Source of the DNA: Raillietiella orientalis | Taxonomy: Eukaryota | DNA: 64,000 nucleotides | Direction of reading: 5' to 3' | Assembly: GCA_036172245.1 (NCBI GenBank) | Contig: JAYWIR010000030.1 | Location: 1 to 64,000, forward strand | In this document: in pieces, positions 20,301 to 42,520 of the stretch | How positions within the stretch are numbered: position 1 is the stretch's first letter | Layout: every line of letters begins with the position of its first letter | Translations under genes and position numbers: made by a program | The notes under the pieces: model-generated | The model's input: only the letters and a program-made list of their open reading frames with translations | The model's database searches: none | What the model was told of the DNA's origin: nothing

Positions 20301-21194
20301 ATTGATCCTGTGCTCTGCCAGCTCCTATTTCCTGCTTGGAAGCCATGCCGTCTCTCAAGACCTGGCTGGCGTGCGGTGTGGGGGCAGCAGCCACCCTCTG
20401 CATCTTGAGGAAGGAGGTAGGTGCACGTGCCTGGGGATTCTCGAACTTTGCTGCGTCCGTTTCCAGATCGCAGGGCTGATCGCGCACACCTGGAGGCGCT
20501 CCCCGATGCGGACCTCAAAGAGGAAGCCACATAGGCCGGGCTGTGTGGTGGCCGGGGGGCACCACACGTCCGTCCCGCATCTTCCCATGGAGTGGGAGGG
20601 TTGCGTGCACGCCTCCGAGCCACCTCTCGTGGTGGTGTGGGTGTCTCGAGGGAGTGGCATGCGGGCAAGTCAGACTTTTCGTTTTCAGGAATCGGAGGCG
20701 TGGCGCCGGATGACGGGAAAGTGAGAAAGTTCCCATCTGGACGGACGGGGGGCCGTTCCAGAGAAGAATAAAACAAAACCAGGAAAGATGCGTTTTAGAG
20801 AATCGGACTGGCACAAGGGAGGAAGGGGTGGAAACGGGAAGGAAAGGGGGCAAAAGAAAGAAAGGCAAAGAAAAGTGACTCGGAAGACAGAGAGATGGCG
20901 GCGGCGGCGGAGGAATCGAACGTGAAAAAAAGCAGGTGAGCAGGAGGAAGGAAGGGAGCTGACTGACGACCGGAGGGGAGGGAGCAGACAAACGGGATGA
21001 GTCAACCGAAGAAGGTGGAAAAAAGTGAAAAGCGGCAAACCAAGATGTGGGACGAAGAAGCAGTTGCCTTGAAGACGAAGATGGTGTTGACAGGAACGGA
21101 AAACGAAAGGAAGACGGACAAAAAAAGGATTTTTTCGCGAAGACTAAGCCTCCGGTTTTTACAAATTTCAGGGGTTGAAAAGTCAGACGAGCAC
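17394..21194 (+). repeat. Segment B, second copy
   Basis: Direct repeat of 6521-10320. Similarity ends at AGTCAGACGAGCAC, after which unique AT-rich sequence begins. Confidence 0.96.
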
Positions 21195-21603: not shown

Positions 21604-22980
21604 TTATTTGGATAAATCGACATCACCCCACTTCATCTGTTGCCAGTCCAAACCAATCGCATTTTCATCGGTGGAAGTTTTAGGTAACAATTTTTCAGCA
21701 TGAGCCCATGGTAAATACTTGGAACAGAGCTGGAAAAAATCCCACTTGGATTTTATGAAGCCTTTCTCATATAACAGTCTAATGGCATCTACTGGTTGAA
21801 TGTCAAGTCGACAGTCTTCAAGTGCATATTGCATCATACTGTTCAACCCATTTAAGCACATTTTATGTATAACTTCCACCAAAAGATTCAAAGCATCTTT
21901 ATCCAAATGTAACTCTGAAGCTAAATCGGCAATAAATGACTTTGTGAATGTTTTTAGCATATGTGCCTTCAAAAAAGTAAATGTATCAAATTCATCATCA
22001 TCAGATCTTTTCTTGGAAGCTTTCCTGGAAGATTTGATGGTAGTTGCAAGTTTATTCCTCTTCCTTACATCAACTGACAGCTGTGGGTTAGTGAGGTTAT
22101 TGGACTTCACCTGCAGCACAGTCTTCTCTTTTGTCTTTCTTGCTGGTGATCTCAATTTGGCATCCATCTGAACCAGTGTGGATCCTGCACTTCCAATACT
22201 TGCAAATTCGGTGGAGTTTCGTGCAATATGAACACTTGAAGCAGCTAACGTTTCTGATTCTTCAAAAAGGAAATGCTGAGATGCAACTGAAGAATGAAGT
22301 GCTTTCGATTTTGGGGGATTTGGGTGTTCCTGTGCAACACTTGACCTTTGGGAGGCAGGACTTCTCACCAATGTATCAAGATGGCTTTTCTGGGAAAAGT
22401 CAGCTGCACGTTCAGCCTCTGAATGAACTGATTGTCTGGTAAAATAATGACTTTGCTTGGTGGGTTCGGAAAAGTCTTTTGGAGACTGGCATTTCACATC
22501 TAGCATAGATGCTGAACTTCTGGATCTTTTCATTTTTTCAACAATGCTTAAAAAATCAGTGTTAGTTACACAAGAAATGTTGGGAGAATGTGAAGAAGGA
22601 ATACGTGACTTTGTTATGGAAGAGGTTTCACAGGATTGGGGTGTGATCAGGTCTGCAGAATACGCATCAAATCTCAATGCCTTTCCGGCCTTCAAGGGGG
22701 TTATGCTTCCCATCTCACTAATGTCAACGGTGGAAGAGTAATTGGAGGACATGCTTTCCATTGGAAGTGGAACGTATCTTTCAATTTCTACTCTTGGTGA
22801 GTAGGCCAGCGGATAGCGAATTGCATCCATCTCTTTCAACATTTTCTCGTCTTCGTTCTCAATGAGGGATACATCTACCTGGACGTTACTATCCCCAGTC
22901 TCCTGACTTGAACTGCTAGAAGCTCTCGGGGACTTTGCCGGGATTGAGGCGGCTTTCTCCATGGAAAATTTCTTGCCCAT
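21604..22980 (-). CDS. CENPT: Intronless 458-aa CENP-T-like kinetochore protein: long Ser-rich N-terminus, C-terminal histone fold with CENP-T extension
   Basis: Longest ORF in the window, ATG in AAAATGG context. The C-terminus LDKDALNLL...QYA...R.DIQPVDAIRLLYEKGFI...FFQLCSKYLP...KLLP follows the CENP-T_C pattern (KEAL...YAxHAGRKTIxxxDxxLLMxRQG...LxxxYLPxE..xLIP). Eight S/T-P sites lie in the N-terminal tail, with a basic patch before the fold. Confidence 0.8.
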   Translation of the reverse strand: MGKKFSMEKAASIPAKSPRASSSSSQETGDSNVQVDVSLIENEDEKMLKEMDAIRYPLAYSPRVEIERYVPLPMESMSSNYSSTVDISEMGSITPLKAGKALRFDAYSADLITPQSCETSSITKSRIPSSHSPNISCVTNTDFLSIVEKMKRSRSSASMLDVKCQSPKDFSEPTKQSHYFTRQSVHSEAERAADFSQKSHLDTLVRSPASQRSSVAQEHPNPPKSKALHSSVASQHFLFEESETLAASSVHIARNSTEFASIGSAGSTLVQMDAKLRSPARKTKEKTVLQVKSNNLTNPQLSVDVRKRNKLATTIKSSRKASKKRSDDDEFDTFTFLKAHMLKTFTKSFIADLASELHLDKDALNLLVEVIHKMCLNGLNSMMQYALEDCRLDIQPVDAIRLLYEKGFIKSKWDFFQLCSKYLPWAHAEKLLPKTSTDENAIGLDWQQMKWGDVDLSK

Positions 22981-24160
22981 TTTGTTTTACAAGGTTGTTC
23001 TTTCCGGGAAAAAAAAAGTTACTTCCGTCCACAACAACAATCTTCAACGCAAACTTTCTTCGAGATCACTAACAAGCGACATACCACTTTCACATCCACT
23101 ACTAAATCAACACACGAAAGGGGCAAGCAAAAACAGGGCATTCACAATGCACGAATCAAGCAGTGATGAATTCGTTTTGTCGTGTCAGAATCAAATACAC
23201 ACCTCCCAAAAGATATTTCAATTCCCGCACTTCTTTTTCTGGCAATTTCACAGGTGCCACCTTATTTCAAATAAAAGTTGCACCAATTGCTATTTTTTTT
23301 GGCTTGTTCTTTCACTTTCACAACGACAAGTTCACTTTTCGTGTTTATTCTGTTTTTTCATAGAAGTGAGGAAGAAAAATCGAAATCTTAACGGGATAGG
23401 CAAATGTGCGAAATATTCGTCATTCAATTGAAAATCAGTCAGTCTCGGGTGTTTCATTGAATGCGTTCGACTCAAAGAATGTTTTGCGCAACTACTTTTT
23501 ATCCAAACGTCATTTTCAATTGCTAATTTCAGTGAGCAAAATCATGAACGAATGACTAGATATACGGAAATTGACAATTATAAAGCGGCTCCAACTAAAG
23601 TATTCTACTAAAGAAAATGCGATCTTTCAAATAAAAATTCAACGTTATAGTACACTAAATATTTATGCGTAAGAAATATTTACAAAAAAAGGTCAAAATA
23701 GTCCGACGTTTGACTACAGAGGCCATTTGCACTTGTAGCCTTGGAAGTTTCCTTTGAATCTGATGGAGCAGAGAGCAGCAGTCTGGCAATTGAATAGATG
23801 CGAAATACTATGCATAGAAAGTCAGATCCGTGATGTTGAAGACGCGCGAGCTGTTCTCCTTGTTTTTGTACGGTATAAGAGAAAGCATTCTGGGGAGGTT
23901 ACCCGAAAATGTGCCACTCGTAAAAGCAATATGATGCCATGAAAAGCGCATCAACAAGCAGTTTTAAAAGGAAAATATGACGAATAGAGGAATTTCTGGA
24001 ACGCATGCATTATGGAAATAAGGAACTCTGAGTTGAAAATGTTGAAGGGTTGTATCATTCGTGCTTAGAAATTGAGAAATGACAAAGCTTATGTTTGTGT
24101 AAATTGATGGAAAACTTCAGGGAGTCTCGTGACCAATCTTACAAACCCAATTCGGTTAGT

Positions 24161-25000
24161 TGCCACCCGGTCACGCCGGGGCGTTTATTAAAATTCTCTA
24201 TAGTTCGTGGTACGAGGCCCCACTACGGCCAACTCAACAGGACCTGCCGGGTTGCCGGTACGCAGACCGGCGCGACTCTCCTCGGCAGCGGAAGGGGATG
24301 GGGGAAAAACAAAAAGAAAAATAAAACATAAGAAACAAAAAGATTTTGGAGGGTTGGGGAGGGATCACTGACCACTGAGAGGAGGGTCCATCCTTTGCAG
24401 GATGCCCTCGAGGTCCGTCCGCATGATTCCCAGGTGGGGCCATCTGGTCGCAATCCTCAGGTAGCGGACTGCAAGTTCGACGGCAACCCTGTCGTGGCTC
24501 GGTGTTCTCACGTCGCTCCAGCACGTCACGATCCCACGGACGCAGCAAAGTGCAGCCAGGGCAGCGGCTGGTCGCAGGGCATCCTGCACGAACAGAAGCC
24601 GAAACACGTCTCTGGGCTGGCTGCCCTCCTGGATCCGTAGGGAGGCACGAAGACGTTCCCACAGGGGTCGGAGGGCAGCACAATCAACAAGGAGGTGGGG
24701 GAGGGTTTCCCGCTCCCCACACCTGATGCAGGCAGGATCTACTCGACCCCTAGTCCAGTGGTGGCGGCGTGCGTTGCAGGGCAGGCCCCAATGCAACAAC
24801 AGAAGCGCCGACTCCTGCCACTTCAGGGGGAGGATCCTCGAACCAATAAATAGCGGGGGCCACTTCAGGTCATCCATCGGGATGCCGAGCAGCTCGCCCC
24901 ATCTCACTAGACCTCTCGGCTGGACGCTAGGGGTAGTGGCGTCCGCCAGTTCCCCCATGGACCAGCCGCTCATCAACTTCTCTCTGCCTGCGATACGGCA
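24161..25000 (-). mobile_element. 5'-truncated L1/Tx1-clade copy with an uninterrupted 203-codon ORF2 C-terminus (24365-24976) and complete 3' UTR
   Basis: HWTRGRVDPACIRCGERETLPHLLVDCAALRPLWERL is an intact CxxC-x5-ETxxHLLxxC zinc finger. The UTR has a T-rich tract, a stem and AATAAACGCCCCGGCGTGACC. Confidence 0.88.
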
Positions 25001-25449
25001 GGAGAAATTCGGTTAGCCTAAACATAGGTCTTGAAAGGATATGTGTACAATTGGAAGATGAAGGAGAACACATACAAAAGGAAACATGAATATACGACAA
25101 CTTCAATAATTCCATCGGCAATTATTATCGATGACATAGTTGTATGTGGACATAATTACTTGGAATGAACAAACGCATCTAGGATGGAATAGATTTGAAC
25201 ATTCGGAAAATCATTCCCAATTACCTGTACAGGAAGAAAGGTCTCATGTTAGTCAAGATAAGAGGATTTCAGTAGCTTTTGCAAGGGAAAAGAAAACGCA
25301 ATATTTTGGAGCGTATTCCAAAACATACGGCAGCGCGGATGTGCAAAGATCACTGTAACGCTGACTGTAACACGATCTTGTAAAAACAAAGCCTCCCCGC
25401 GGAAGGAATCCGTGAGCACGGACACTGTTCATTCTAAAGTCAAAATAGA

Positions 25450-32004: not shown

Positions 32005-34929
32005 GTCACCCGCCCTGCTGGCCGGCAGCCGCCGTTTGTCCAGAGGGAAGGAGAGCCACGCAGCTAGGATAGGGTGTAACAGCGACTCAGGCTCACTACT
32101 TCTGGACCCTTCCCGTTCCCTCCAGGGAGACTTCCCCGAGTTCACGAGCCTCTTCCTCCCCACGTTGTGGTCCACGGGAAGGCGAGAGGTGCCATCGGCG
32201 ATTCTCCGAGGAATCGGCGATCCGCCTCAGCTGGAACGCAAGCGTTTTCATGCGAGGTGGCAACGGCGCCGCGCCTTCGCCATCGACCTCGCGCCCCAGG
32301 GTACCTTCCACGCGCAGACTGACACCCATGCAGCACCCACTCATCGTCAGCTGCCCGGCCTCCGGTCTTCAAGCTCATTCGCGCACGCATCTTCCTGGAA
32401 GGAAGGATGCCGGCAGTTCCCTGCATCCTTCTTCAGGAAGACGTGAGATGTTCGAGGCGACTTCCGGTGTCCCGCCGTGTTTCCTCCGGCTGGTCGGTCT
32501 TCCCAGCGCCTCGCGCCCCGCTTCACGCTGCGGACAGGAGCAGCCGCAGGAGGAACGCAGCGAATATTCGCCAAGCGAACCTCGCAACCCCGGAGCGGAG
32601 ACAACACGCGCCATCTCCGCCTTCCGGGTGCCAGTCGCCCCCGCTCCTTTGGGCTAGCTGCGTACGAATTCCGCGCTCCTCAATCCCAACAATGTTTCCG
32701 TTCGAGGGCCGCACCGGCCCTTCTCGCGAGGGGGTCCCTTGCCTACCGCCGATCTCGCAGCGCCACGTTGCGCCCGCGGCGTCCTCAAAGGCCCGCCGCT
32801 CGCTGGAGCTGCAGCGACGCCAACGCAAGGCGCACTGCATCGCCGTCTCATTCGCTACTTCTCTTTTCCATAGAAGGCTTGCGGGTGGTGCCAACGAGGT
32901 CAGCAGGCAAATCGCCAAAGTCTTGCGCAGTCTGCGGGAGACGCGTGGTGATCCCGGTGTCCACCTCCGTCGTCCTGCGGCAGGTCGGTCATCCACCCTA
33001 CCTGCTCTACCGCTGCAACGAACAAGCAGCTGACCTGACCGATTGAGCACCTTTTTGCGTCCGCTTTTCTGGAATTACAAGGAAAACGACTACCCCTTTC
33101 CTTTGCATTTTTCATGGAGAAACGTCCCGGAGTGACCGGAAGAAAAGGCTACCAGAAGCAGCCGGACCGGACTTCTGAGGGGTAGACGTCTTCCCCTAAG
33201 AGCACTGCGAACTTGCTGGTGCCACTGTCAGCCGGTGACGCCTCGAAGGGGAAAAGGACCATCCATCCACTGAGCGGGTTGGGCACACAAAAAGACAAAG
33301 AACTTCAGAGGGTAGGGAACAAGAAACGAACGAATGAAATTAAAAGAGGAAATCGCACCGGTGCCTGGTCAGCACCGCTGAGGGCGAGGGGACAAGTGCA
33401 CGTCTGACTTTTCAAGTTAACAACCCCTGAAATTCGTAAAAACCGGAAGCTTAGTCTTCGCGAAAAAATCCTTGTTTTGTTCGCCTTCCTTTCGTTTTCC
33501 GTTCCTGTCAACACCATCTTCGTCTTCACGGCAACTGCTTCTTCGTCCCACATCTTGGTTTGCCGCTTTTCACTTTTTTCCACCTTCTTCGGTTGACTCA
33601 TCCCGTTTGTCTGCTCCCTCCCCTCCGTTCGTCAGTCAGCTCCCTTCCTTCCTCCTGCTCACCTGCTTTTTTTCACGTTCGATTCCTCCGCCGCCGCCGC
33701 CATCTCTCTGTCTTCCGAGTCACTTTTCTTTGCTTTTCTTTCTTTTGCCCCCTTTCCTTCCCGTTTCCACCCCTTCCTCCCTTGTGCCAGTCCGATTCTC
33801 TAAAACGCATCCCTCCTGGTTTTGTTTTATTCTTCTCTGGAACGGCCCCCCGTCCGTCCAGATGGGAACTTTCTCACTTTCCCGTCATCCGGCGCCACGC
33901 CTCCGATTCCTGAAAACGAAAAGTCTGACTTGCCCGCATGCCACTCCCTCAGCTTACCCACACCACCACGAGAGGTGGCTCGGAGGCGTGCACGCAACCC
34001 CTCCCACTCCCATGGGAAGATGCAGGACGGACCTGTGGTGCCCCCCGACACCACACAGCCCGGCTGCTCTTCCTCTTTGAGGTCCGCATCAGGGGAGCGC
34101 CTCCAGGTGTGAGCGATCAGCCCTGCGATCTGGAAACGGACGCAGCAAAGTTCGAGAATCCCCAGGCACGTGCACCTACCTCCTTCCTCAAGATGCAGAG
34201 GGTGGCTGCTGCCCCCACACCGCACGCCAGCCAGGTCTTGAGAGACGGCATGGCTTCCAAGCAGGAAATAGGAGCTGGCAGAGCACAGGATCAATTTCGC
34301 GTGGAGGAAATCCCTTCAGCTTCTCGGTCCCTTTCTTTTTTTTCTTTTGGAATGGAGCGTATCCTAGGAAACGATCTCGGCTAACGTGGGCTTCGTCTGC
34401 CGAGTGGCACTGGTGAGTTACGCGCTGCCCATTTGCGTGGCGATGTCGATGCTCAAGGATTCCCATCTAGGAAGCAAGAAGAGCGAAAGCAAAAACTAAT
34501 ACCGTGGCTTCCGGACTCCCGAAATCTCGGAAGGCTCTTTCCTGTTTTCCCCTTCTTTTCCCCTTCTTGCCAAACCATTCTGATCGTTTCCTTCGTTCCG
34601 CCATCTTCTTTCGCTCTGCCTGTCGCTTTTTCTCCTTCCAACGACCAGCCTCCCTTTCTTCATCACCTTCTTAACTTGATTCCTAGGTCTCTCATCGTAC
34701 CCCTATTTTCTCCCGCTTTTTCATCCCCCTTCCTTTTTCCGCGTCTTCATTATCAGAGCAGTTTCATCCCCTGCTTCCCTCTTTTTGTTGCCTACCCGGT
34801 TTTCTCAATTACTGAAGAATGTTGCTCTATTCCCTCCCCACAATTCTTTTGGCGCGAGGATTTGCTCCGAGACTTTTTATTATCCACCTTGCAAAATACA
34901 GAAGGTACAAGAAGAACACTTTTCGTATT
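32005..34929 (-). repeat. Third copy of the duplicated unit, part 1 (reverse complement of ~8782-11711)
   Basis: Near-identical sequence; e.g. ORF 32900..33115(-) equals 10601..10816(+). Confidence 0.95.
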
Positions 34930-34930
34930 G

Positions 34931-37092
34931 ACGGACGGACTGCGATGCTTAACATGAAGCCTCATCGTGCGACTATCAACTTCGACAGAATGTTACCTCG
35001 GTAGAGGAGAACATTTGGACGTTGTGCCCCTGCTCGCAAACCGTATTGCCTGGCTTCAGGAGTCAGTTGACGCGTGGGGGAAGATTGAAGGCTCGAGCGA
35101 TGCGGAGCACGCCTGCCTGCGGGGGGAAACGACCAGCTCGTCAGTCTGTGCGGGAGATGTTGTGCAGCTCACGCAAGATGCGGTGGGTCTCGTCCACTCC
35201 TTTTGCCTCAGTAGAAGCAAGGGACAGTGACAATCCGGCAAGCTGGAAGAAACCTGCTGTACTGCAATACGAAAGAAACTTCGGGGTGGGTGGACAACTC
35301 GGTAGGTGACGGACGCGGCAACCGCGAGTGTCTCACCACAAGGACTTCTACGCTGGGGCGATACCTCCGTCAGAGGTGAAGTGGCCCTTGGCATTCTGGA
35401 ACGGTGGCGCTCTTCCCCTCAAGTGGCAGGAGGTGGCGTTGCTGGTGTTGCATGGGGGGATCCTGCACCAAGAGCGCCTCCATCGTTGTACACGAGGGGG
35501 GGAGTGTCGATGCGCATTGTGCGAAGTGCGGCCAGAAGCCAGTCTTTCGCGCACTTATTGACAGACTGCTCTTCCCTTCGACCCCTTTGGAATCGTCTCT
35601 CGACGATCCATCCTAGGAACTGCGCAGGGCTAACCCAGAGGCATTTCCCGGCACGTCTTCGTGCGGGCTGCACTGCCTCCAGGTGCGTCCCTCGCAGTCC
35701 TCTGTTGCCTTCAGCGGGGAAGTGACGACCTGGAACGCAGGAATAAGAGGCCAGAATGGGAGAGGCTCCATCTACCGGGCGAGAATCTTTTTAAGGACCG
35801 TCACCAGATGGCCTTATGTGGACAACTTAAAAACAGCACTTGTCAGCATCCTGAGCGAGATGCAGAGGACGCCTCTCAACACGGAGGAATCCCTTCCTCC
35901 GCTTTCCTGTCCCGGGAAAAACTCTCCCTCCTTTTTTCGTTTGTTTGATTTTTGTTGTTCTTTAAACCATCGCTGCCGAAGTGGACTTCGCCTGTCTGAG
36001 CACCGGGAATTTGCTTGTTTCGGTGCACGTGGTAGAACCACGCGTTCTATCACCTTCCTGTAATTTTTGTTACCGTATTTTTATTATTCTATTTAATAAT
36101 CAATTAGCCATAAAAAGCGGATGGAAAACCTGTGTGTCGGTGAACGCTCCACGCGGACTCCTACCTGTGGCCGTTGGCATCCGGGTTTACGAGCGTTTTC
36201 AAAGAAGCGACCTCCCCGGAGTAACTGGGTGAAAACGGGAAGCTCGGTCAATGCTGCCTACGGGCGCGGGCGTCTCCTCTGCTTGCAACGTTTGCATTTC
36301 TTTTCGCTTCTTTTTCTCTCCTCCGCATCCTTCGGCGCTTTTCCGTTCTTCCTGGCCCGTCCTGCGGGTGAACCTGGTGTGGCCCTTCTGGATAGACCGC
36401 CGCCGACTCGCGATGAAGGAGAACCGTTTCTTGAAGCGCCTCACTTCCTCAAAGTGACCGCGAACCTTCTCCCTGTCCCTTCCGCTTCCCTACGCGGGGA
36501 GACGGGGGCGTCGTCCCATTCCTGCAGCAAGGGGAGAGGGTGGGTTCCCGGCAGAGCACCGCGGCGCGCTTTTCCCATCCTCCCCGTCACCTTCGGGGTT
36601 CCGCCTGCGCCAGACGGCGCGCTCCTCGAGGGATGCCGTGCAGTTTGCGCGTCCCGCGACCCGGGGCGGTGGCAGTCCTTCAGATGAACCACGCGCAAGC
36701 GGTCCACCTCCGAGAGAAGAACGTTCTGCCCGCCCGGGAAAGTGGAGTGCTCATTGGGTGCCGCCGCCTGCCATGCATCACTCCCGCTCGCAGGCACGAG
36801 GGAGGTCCTCTAACGCATCCTTCAGCTCGGTCAGCTCGTTTCCTTGGCACCCCGAATCGGCGCTTCTGCTGCTGCACTGGAGCCTCCCGCCGATCTCACT
36901 GGACTCGGTGGGGGGAAGGGGGGAGGGGATGCCAACTCGAACAGATGCGGGGAACACGAATCCCTCACGTAACCCATGGACGATGCACACTTCGGTAGGT
37001 TGACGGCCGATCCCGGAGGTGCTGCAATATGGGATCATCCCGAGACGGGAGAGGAGCAAGCTCCAAGCATCCCGTCCACTTCCAAAAAGAAG
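34931..37092 (+). repeat. Third copy of the duplicated unit, part 2 (direct copy of ~1282-3445)
   Basis: Offset ~33647; e.g. ORF 35306..35725 equals 1659..2078. Ends at CCAAAAAGAAG. Confidence 0.95.
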
Positions 37093-39799: not shown

Positions 39800-41250
39800 T
39801 CACGCTTCATTCGACCTCTGCACGCGAAATCGATGCCATTTTAGGTGGGCGGCTCCAGCATATGCGTTCTTCTTTAAGGCGACCATAGGTCATTATGGCG
39901 AGAAAACAGCCGAATCGATCTGGGCTTTTGGAATGGGCAAAATCTCTTTGTGGTCCCTGGCTGTGTGGGATCAATATTCTTGCTGCTCCGTATACACCCT
40001 GGTTCCGAACTGCTTGCTTCAGCAAGTCGAAAGCACGAAGACATTTCGTTCTCCCTCCACTCAGCACTTACTGCTCACAGAGCTCCTGTTGCTCTCCAGC
40101 GACATTCCTGCTGGAGTCAGGGGGGTGCCACCTAGGAGGTGGAAGGAGCCCTTCGGACGCACCAGGTTTCTTGATCAGTCCTCTGTCTCTCCTTTACCCG
40201 TTCCCTTGAAGTCCCAGAAAAAATACGAGCACCCATCGTGTTGAGGACATGGAACATGACTGCCCAGGGACGCACCGAACCCCTCTTCGTGAGCGCTGCC
40301 AGCCGCATCCCCATGCCTGCGCGGGATCGCGGCGTCCTGGAAAGAAGCCAGGGGAGGAGGCCGCTCTAGGGACGCCATCCACTTTTCCCTACGTTTCTCG
40401 CGGGGGGCAACGAGAGAGCCCCGCCTGGTGAACATGTGGCAGGAACTTTCCGGCCTCCAGCAATGAACATACTAAGGATCCCGGATGAAAATCCGCGAGA
40501 GGCTCCTCTGCTGGTGGTTTCCTTTGAGAGGGACGCGCACATATGTATGACGTGCAGCTGACCGCATTCCCCGCGCCGGGGAGGATGGCCAGCCGAGCTA
40601 GGGTCAACGATCCAAGAGGGCACAACATCTCTTCACCGGTTCACTCCAGCCCTGGCGGAAGGACGACGACCCGAGAACGGTGGTCGCCTTCCCAACGAAA
40701 ACCTTTCGCCAACCTGGATAGCGAGTCCGGTTTCCGGGCAAGGGCTGATCCGCCGCCGGGCTCCAAAGTGCGGGCAGATGCCTTCACCAGCGAGAAAGGG
40801 GGGGGAGAGGCGGACATTTTGTTCGCGGGGTTTGAACCCGCAGCCTTGGTTCGGTGCCAGAGTAATTAGGTTGCTTCTTCCCCTGCTCTGTCGTCAACTC
40901 CGCCGCAGCACACCTGATCGCCGAAAACGCGCCGGCGCTCGTTGTCTCGTAGGTTGGCAACCGCGTTTCTCGATTCTTCCCTGCTCGCTCGAATGTGCGA
41001 GGGCACGAGCCGTGGTCTCCTCTGCCTCTCCGTCGGGATCCCGGTGTGGAGGAACGTCCGCGTACACTGCGTTGGCAACTCAGCCAGCATCCCAGACTGC
41101 TTTTCCAGCTTCCGTTTCTGCGACTCCTTTATCTTCTTTCCTAGCCGCGCCGGCGGCCTGCGAGCAGGCAGCCGCCACCATTCCAAACGTTCGTCAGCCG
41201 CCGAGGGAGATCCTAGGGAACACTAGGAATCTTCTGGGGGCTTCGTTCAC
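39800..41250 (-). mobile_element. Another decayed L1/Tx1-like 5' region (ORF1 end and APE start)
   Basis: Relics MFIAGGRKV...RNVGKSG (knuckle-like), HVLNTMG (SLNVxG), QGVYGA (NVYAP). Confidence 0.4.
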
Positions 41251-41279
41251 CCCCTTCGTCCCAGTGCTGACCTCCCTAA

Positions 41280-42165
41280 GGGGAGCAATGGACAGCCAAC
41301 ATCCAGCGAAGTGGGAAGTGACCTGCTTAATACGAAACACGAAAAAACACCTGGGTGCTTGGACAACTCGGGAGTTGGCAGACACCGCGACATCGAGTGT
41401 TCCACCAAACGGACTGTTACGCTGAGAGTACTACGAATTCCTCTGGAGGAGGTACAGTGGCCCCCAGCGTGTTGGAACAGTGCTACCTTCCCTTTGAAGT
41501 GGCAGAAGTCGGCAACCCTGCTGTTGCATTGGGACCTCCCATGTAACGCCCGCCGACCCCATTGCATCCGGGGGAGTGTAAGCCCGAACTGCGGCAGGTA
41601 CGGCGAGAGAGCGTCCCTCCCGCCCCTGCTCATGGATTGTGTTGCCCTGCGTCCTTTGTGGGAACGTTTTGCTGCGTCCTTGTGGATTCCCGAGGGCAAT
41701 CCCAGAGATGCTTTGAAGGACCTCTTCCTGCGCGCCGCCTTCACATCGGCCGCATCCCCAGCAGCACTTTGCTGCCCATGCGACGGGATCGTGGCTACAT
41801 GGAGCAACGCCAGAGGAGGCCAGAACGACAGGGACGTCATCTATTTTACTATCTTACATGAGGACAGCGTCAAGATGGCACCATCTGGGAACCATAATAC
41901 AGGAACTTGCCGTCATCCTTACAAGGATGCAGGCGACGTCCTCCAGAACGCAGTGATGCCTTTCCGAACCCACCACTGTTTTTGTATATTTCCTTTTATT
42001 TTTCTTTTTGTTTGTATCTCCTTCCCCTGTGCTGCCGAGGCGAACCTCGCTGTCTTGCGTGCCGCCTCTCGGCAGCTTCCTTTTAGCACACTTATAACTC
42101 GGCAGGACCAACCGAACTGTCACCGACTTGTATGTTTACTTTTTATATAAATAAACGCTCCGACG
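41280..42165 (+). mobile_element. 5'-truncated L1/Tx1-clade 3' end plus UTR, same family as 24161-25000
   Basis: FPLKWQKSATLLLHWDLPCNARRPHCIRGSVSPNCGRYGERASLPPLLMDCVALRPLWERF. UTR stem at 42031-42076; ends AATAAACGCTCCG. Confidence 0.88.
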
Positions 42166-42166
42166 C

Positions 42167-42520
42167 ATATTAATGCATACATATAATATATGTATACAGT
42201 AATATACATATTAATATATATACGTATTAATATATGTATATATGAATATGTATATTAATATATACATATATTAAATGTAAACACATACACACATATTAAT
42301 TTATGCAAATAAACATATCAGTATATAGATATTAATAGACATATATTATGTATAAATTTATATATATTAAAATGTATATATTTATATGTATATTTATATA
42401 AACTGATATCTATATTTGTATAAATTGATATGTATATATATGTTAATATGCGTATTTATATATATATTAAAGATTGTAATGTGCATATTGCACTGATTAA
42501 TATATAATTATATGTATAAA
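42167..42520. repeat. Degenerate (TA)n-rich low-complexity tract
   Basis: Nearly pure A/T with interrupted TA and TATG runs. Confidence 0.85.

Follow-up and report, generated by a model that had tools for sequence, protein, structure and literature searches.

The stretch analysed here, which we call the window, comprises the first 64,000 nucleotides of contig JAYWIR010000030.1 from Raillietiella orientalis. Its longest open reading frame (ORF) occupies positions 21604-22980 of the minus strand, within a low-GC island of about 3.2 kb (~21.0-24.2 kb, ~40% GC) that has GC-rich repeats on both sides. The frame that the original prediction described is real. It lies on the minus strand, runs from an ATG to a TAA and encodes 458 amino acids (aa), with a C-terminal region that, as predicted, ends KYLP...KLLP when read in translation. 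The ORF is intact, and its product combines a CENP-T-like architecture with a match to the profile of that family. On this basis we propose that the locus is probably a working gene that encodes, in one exon, a strongly diverged CENP-T (the Cnn1/Cnp20 family) of a poorly sampled eukaryote. The parts of the gene on which the argument draws are these:

21604..22980, minus strand: coding sequence, complete and uninterrupted (458 codons plus the TAA stop)
22006..22980, minus strand: N-terminal arm, aa 1-325, Ser-rich (18%), with eight S/T-P sites
22645..22713, minus strand: candidate docking motif for Ndc80C (Spc24/25), aa 90-112 (GSITPLKAGKALRFDAYSADLIT), proposed from a cyclin-dependent kinase (CDK) site, T94, and from its position
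22006..22140, minus strand: basic patch, aa 281-325, just N-terminal to the histone fold, with SPAR278 at its start
21766..21969, minus strand: putative histone-fold domain, aa 338-405, from the Pfam CENP-T_C match, with helices taken from low-confidence AlphaFold models
21682..21747, minus strand: putative two-helix histone-fold extension, aa 412-433 (KWDFFQLCSKYLPWAHAEKLLP), from the Pfam match, which reaches aa 431, and from predicted helices
21607..21681, minus strand: C-terminal tail, 25 aa (KTSTDENAIGLDWQQMKWGDVDLSK), beyond the profile match and covered by a low-confidence prediction

The ATG at 22980 stands in the context AAAATGG and is preceded, three codons upstream, by an in-frame TAA, which gives 460 open codons from stop to stop. 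The analytic probability of such a run at the composition of the island is ~1.5e-13. Shuffling the 3.2-kb island 2000 times gave longest frames of 99 codons on average and of 208 at most, and the remaining five frames across the same stretch carry 13-36 stops each. Together, these results show that the ORF is not a chance frame, and we regard it as a real, non-random gene.

The evidence for the identity of the protein comes mainly from its C-terminal region (...CSKYLPWAHAEKLLPKTS...). Searched against Pfam, with E-values corrected for 24,736 models, the protein matched one family only, CENP-T_C (PF15511), with aa 338-431 aligned in a single stretch to profile positions 9-102 of 108. The whole protein scored E = 5.5e-5 (23.6 bits), and aa 316-458 by themselves scored E = 8.9e-6 (26.2 bits). 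The best profile is not that of another histone-fold family. None of these, from core histones, NF-Y and TAFs to CENP-S, was listed at E <= 10, with the reservation that the HMMER filters discard most matches above E ~0.1. As a negative control, 297 further ORFs of the window were scanned. Of the stop-to-stop ORFs that reach 120 aa or more, 154 besides this one, 147 were included; the remaining 150 were the longest among 238 ORFs of 60-119 aa located in 23-30.5 kb and 38-64 kb. None gave a histone-fold match. Given the corrected E-value, the single near-full-length stretch and the clean control, we take the homology to CENP-T_C to be real, even though the score falls short of the curated Pfam threshold. 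The sequence across loop 2 and alpha3, RLDIQPVD, additionally fits the pattern R-x-x-[IV]-x-x-x-D, which we take to be typical of histone folds. The match does not end with alpha3 but continues beyond it to aa 431 (profile position 102 of 108), so that the extension, a feature of the CENP-T family, is present here as well. This two-helix extension is described as binding CENP-K and as setting CENP-T apart from ordinary histone folds (PMC12678787; PMC9427032).

The remainder of the protein also has features of the family. The 335 aa ahead of the fold, put at about 330 aa in the original prediction, contain 18% Ser and, as that prediction stated, eight S/T-P sites (aa 17, 61, 94, 113, 132, 166, 207 and 278), two of which, TPLK (94) and SPAR (278), are the only full CDK consensus sites of the form [ST]Px[KR]. 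No Pfam family matched the N-terminal 315 aa. A long N-terminal arm with CDK consensus sites is characteristic of CENP-T, as is a basic region directly ahead of the fold, where aa 281-320 carry a net charge of +10. In published accounts CENP-T begins with a long unstructured region that carries CDK sites, has basic residues ahead of alpha1 and closes with a histone fold to which two extension helices are added (PMC12678787; PMC9427032). The architecture that we read from the translation appears to match this description.

Within the arm, aa 90-112 include the full CDK consensus T94 (TPLK) followed by a basic and hydrophobic stretch, AGKALRFDAYSADLI. Judged solely by its position and its CDK consensus, T94 is the best candidate for an Ndc80C site. 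The mapped sites given in PMC9427032 are Thr11 and Thr85 in human, Thr72 in chicken and aa 70-87 in S. pombe, and T94 is about as far from the N-terminus as these.

Two kinds of prediction bear on the fold itself. AlphaFold, run on the single sequence, placed five helices in the C-terminal region, at aa 334-357, 361-384, 396-405, 412-422 and 425-431 (24, 24, 10, 11 and 7 residues), which, as far as models of low overall confidence can be followed, have the order and rough size expected of alpha1-alpha2-alpha3 and an extension pair. Within the extension the predicted local distance difference test (pLDDT) score was ~76-79 over the helix at 412-422 and ~53 over that at 425-431. Protein language-model comparison with ESM-Atlas returned CENP-T/Cnn1 clusters as all ten of the best named clusters for the whole protein (top score 0.89, 178 features shared). 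For aa 330-458 alone the top cluster consisted of chordate CENP-T fragments (0.87, 169 shared), and the other clusters listed were all of histone-fold type, namely a fungal CENP-T_C-type cluster, TAF11, TAF12, TAF13 and TAF10. As all of these scores lie below 0.9, we treat the neighbours as leads only.

Several results weigh against assignment to CENP-T. Even at its best, the CENP-T_C match scores 26.2 bits against a Pfam gathering cut-off of 28.1 bits, and the profile is not specific to CENP-T, as the names of ESM-Atlas clusters show PF15511 to be shared with histone H4. Neither CENP-T_N (PF16171) nor CENP-S (PF15630) matched alongside it in this protein, whereas PF15630 is found in 26-100% of the members of the listed CENP-T clusters. 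The enrichment of S/T-P sites over composition is modest, with 4.4 +/- 1.8 sites expected from 5000 shuffles of the N-terminal 335 aa (p = 0.045). Both single-sequence AlphaFold models are poor (pLDDT 58.7 and 63.6) and in neither has a histone fold formed; Foldseek returned nothing at E <= 0.001 for either, and VIA-align in its wide setting matched the first to generic helical hairpins only (Z <= 7.7). Sequence searches for relatives were equally empty. A word-indexed search of 5.8 billion clusters, made with the whole protein and with aa 325-458 at E <= 10, found no relative; exhaustive phmmer with the whole protein against 1.84 billion representatives found no credible one; among the chains of the PDB, which include solved CENP-T entries, no CENP-T was matched at E <= 10; and the metagenome contigs scanned for the locus held no relative.

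The few matches that these searches did return were set aside. The sole phmmer match, P0002, is a 1883-aa ankyrin-repeat protein aligned in 7 repeated stretches, and was judged spurious. Leucine-rich-repeat proteins in the PDB, at E = 0.07, were treated as chance matches, and two CENP-S/MHF1 entries among the Foldseek results, 3vh5_A and 4dra_B, were dismissed as evidence at a non-significant E of ~4.

In the absence of relatives AlphaFold had no alignment to work from; its models were poor, and the fold searches made with them were uninformative. Histone folds are obligate dimers, and a poor model of a monomer predicted without an alignment is unsurprising. Two large protein libraries yielded neither the protein nor a relative, and the protein is probably missing from protein catalogues. 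The idea of a highly diverged CENP-T put forward in the original prediction is supported by the profile, CENP-T_C (aa 338-431) being both the best and the only Pfam match, within the limits set by a score under the cut-off and by models too poor for assigning a fold.

Comparison with known systems places the gene in a recognizable pattern. With vertebrate CENP-T and fungal Cnn1/Cnp20 it shares a long low-complexity arm in which S/T-P sites of CDK type occur, a basic stretch that precedes alpha1 and what appears to be a C-terminal histone fold, extended by two helices that end in an LP...LLP-type sequence. Unlike them, it shows no pairwise similarity detected here to any solved or catalogued CENP-T, has a tail of 25 aa after the extension and is encoded without interruption, whereas vertebrate CENP-T genes are multi-exon. 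Strong divergence among CENP-Ts has precedents. Yeast Cnn1 was recognized solely through sensitive computation (PMC9252888), and lepidopteran CENP-T was discovered by proteomics and remote homology (PMC12678787). The latter study reports CENP-T homologues in all insect orders but beetles and also in ticks, horseshoe crab, shrimp and millipede, and describes insects and some ticks as having no CENP-W, with a monomeric fold in which alpha3 is repositioned (PMC12678787). Like these divergent arthropod proteins (Bombyx mori, Spodoptera, ticks), which demanded proteomics, profile or remote-homology searches, the present protein appears to keep the histone fold, the extension and an N-terminal recruiting arm, although at 458 aa it is much shorter than the lepidopteran ones, for which fragment numbering reaches aa 1314 and 1016 (PMC12678787). 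The gene fits the documented pattern of diverged CENP-Ts that escape pairwise searches.

Two smaller histone-fold proteins were also considered and rejected. CENP-S/MHF1 (PF15630) has extra C-terminal helices after a histone fold, as the present protein is predicted to have, and among the Foldseek matches, none of them significant, no other kinetochore protein with a histone fold was listed. CENP-S is, however, a small protein without a long N-terminal arm, whereas the product here has 458 aa, and PF15630 was not matched at E <= 10. Histone H4 is linked to the present protein through PF15511, whose clusters carry the name 'CENP-T/Histone H4 histone fold'. H4, however, is a core histone of ~100 aa that has a short basic tail and lacks helices beyond alpha3, whereas the protein here is 458 aa long, has 335 aa ahead of the putative fold and is predicted to continue past alpha3 with two more helices.

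If the protein is a CENP-T, its parts suggest how it would work. The C-terminal fold (aa ~338-405) and the basic patch (aa 281-325) would bind centromeric DNA; the DNA contacts of CENP-T are described as involving positive residues within alpha1 and ahead of it (PMC12678787), and the patch may act likewise. The fold would be paired with a CENP-W-like partner, or would be stabilized by itself, as in insects, if that partner has been lost. The extension (aa 412-433) may dock onto CENP-K of the CENP-HIKM complex. The Ser-rich arm, which is probably disordered, would recruit the outer kinetochore, that is Ndc80C and possibly Mis12C, in mitosis once CDK has phosphorylated its S/T-P sites, with T94 as the leading candidate phosphosite for recruitment of Ndc80C. 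We infer, by analogy with the family, that the gene is expressed and that its product localizes to the kinetochore.

A more radical version of this scheme, in which the gene is the sole CENP-T of a barely sampled lineage, intronless and with a fold that, like those of insects and some ticks, works without CENP-W, shielded instead by the extension or tail, is in our view very unlikely. The 25-aa tail and the missing CENP-S co-match are compatible with an altered fold without demonstrating one. Were this reading true, partner-free histone folds would have arisen a third time, independently.

The surroundings of the gene consist largely of repeats, which bear on how it may have arisen. The immediate neighbours are as follows:

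20598..21177, no strand assigned: downstream neighbour, where a large GC-rich repeat ends, recognized from near-identical copies elsewhere in the window
24365..25012, minus strand: upstream neighbour, apparently a 3' fragment of a non-long-terminal-repeat (non-LTR) retrotransposon, from a weak zf-RVT match and high depth

Both edges of the island are repeated DNA, as judged from contig depth in one DNA sequencing run, which was ~1-5 on the island itself and rose to 22.7 at 20.8-20.9 kb and to 36-68 at 24.2-24.4 kb. On the downstream side the GC-rich (~57%) repeat covers positions 1-21250 and recurs at 32200-37000, in copies that are 97-100% identical and lie in both orientations. Direct copies at 6.5-10.4 kb and 17.4-21.2 kb are spaced ~10.88 kb from start to start, and between them a second segment is present in inverted copies (1-6.5 kb against 10.9-17.4 kb). 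Scanned ORFs of this repeat gave no Pfam match. As read depth at its edge is only ~5x that of unique DNA, the repeat may be a local segmental duplication and inversion and not a genome-wide transposon.

On the upstream side the ORF at 24365-25012 gave the single Pfam match among the 297 other ORFs, to zf-RVT, the C-terminal zinc-binding part of non-LTR reverse transcriptases, at an E of 5.9e-4 and below the cut-off. A homologue search with this ORF found nothing, and A-rich loose ends lie near 24306-24343. A very similar peptide, spotted by eye, is encoded at 41227-42150 on the plus strand, and the two have LLLHWxLPCNARR...C..C/YGER..LP.LL.DC.ALRPLWER. in common; both resemble the zinc-binding C-terminus of such an enzyme. 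The depth at 24.2-24.4 kb indicates that the retrotransposon fragment belongs to a high-copy family, and its position restricts the private upstream region of the gene to ~1.3 kb. A location 'among retroelement debris', as the original prediction put it, is thus partly confirmed: the gene is isolated among repeats, and the retroelement part comes down to two fragments of one family resembling long interspersed elements (LINEs). Neither Rfam nor a tRNA scan gave a match in the window, and no CENP-W-like ORF was present among the 297 ORFs scanned.

Some smaller observations concern the gene and its neighbourhood. Two plus-strand ORFs, 21800-22171 (123 aa) and 22961-23431 (156 aa), lie opposite and beside it; the latter, taken as 22907-23431, gave no Pfam match, and both are probably chance frames. 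Some 20-32 nt upstream of the ATG, at window positions 23000-23012 on the minus strand, a T-run is followed by a near-palindromic element, TTTCCCGGAAA. We presume this element to be similar to an E2F-type site and to a TTCnnnGAA STAT-type site, and it might be a promoter element or a product of chance. The contigs of the DNA run (X1, share 0.07) include a few of 151 nt that are identical to the window, one of them within the ORF (22691-22841); this run may be the very sample used to assemble the window, and its contigs bear neither on expression nor on relatives. Further away, an AT-rich tandem repeat at 42167-42327 (period 44/85, 2-3 copies) lies at the edge of the region of the window that is richest in AT (46-50 kb, 30-35% GC).

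Explanations other than a CENP-T gene differ over what the protein is and over how it came to be intronless. That the frame is no gene at all would be in keeping with the failure to find any homologue that could show conservation; the length of the frame far beyond every shuffle, its minute analytic probability and the near-full-length profile match leave this reading with practically no probability, and we consider it effectively refuted. A lineage-specific histone-fold protein other than CENP-T, such as a diverged TAF/SAGA-type or H4-like protein with a disordered arm and a role in transcription or chromatin, is unlikely, although it is the likeliest of the alternatives. It draws on the sub-threshold Pfam score, on a profile that models H4 too, on fold searches with Foldseek and VIA-align that gave no structural confirmation of CENP-T, and on TAF11 and TAF12 clusters that score 0.79-0.81 for the domain alone. 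Yet no TAF, NF-Y, core-histone or CENP-S family matched in Pfam at E <= 10, the match that we have spans both predicted helices after alpha3, which H4 lacks, and CENP-T is the top language-model neighbour whether the entire protein or just the domain is compared.

The uninterrupted coding sequence (the untranslated regions may contain introns) invites a second group of explanations. A processed retrocopy of an intron-bearing CENP-T parent, made intronless by reverse transcription and either young and non-functional or functional, would suit the position of the locus, which repeats flank on both sides and which has fragments of non-LTR retrotransposons 1.3 kb upstream of it and others at 41-42 kb. 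We nevertheless think it distinctly unlikely. No poly(A) remnant is seen in the 700 nt that follow the stop, where no A-run of at least 6 occurs before +469 and the only signal-like hexamers are weak ones (AGTAAA at +92 and CATAAA at +133); a target-site duplication, sought in the flanks, was represented by nothing but a shared 10-mer that is a T-run; and the frame is fully intact. The argument of the original prediction that a gene without introns is out of place in a genome with multi-kb introns also gains no support within the window, where no other gene was recognized among the 297 ORFs. The hallmarks of a processed retrocopy are therefore absent, and the earlier suggestion of a retrogene goes unsupported, yet old copies lose such marks. 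Horizontal acquisition from a prokaryote or virus, likewise raised in the original prediction, has nothing to recommend it beyond the missing introns and close relatives. Every listed CENP-T_C cluster is eukaryotic (Eukaryota 100%), libraries dominated by prokaryotic and metagenomic proteins returned no match, and the GC content of the gene (~40%) equals that of its unique flanks; we regard such an origin as extremely improbable. A diverged CENP-T encoded by a single exon remains the reading that we favour.

CENP-T is one of the two linkers that join centromeric DNA to the microtubule-binding outer kinetochore, and its fast sequence divergence makes its presence or absence uncertain in many lineages. 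Divergent invertebrate CENP-Ts that are detected by profile methods alone have already been published (PMC12678787), and the gene reported here, while useful for kinetochore catalogues, raises no new question by itself. Its importance would be greater only if the lineage proved to be without CENP-W, or if a retrocopy had replaced its parent. If confirmed, a CENP-T in this organism would add one more point to the map of kinetochore composition.

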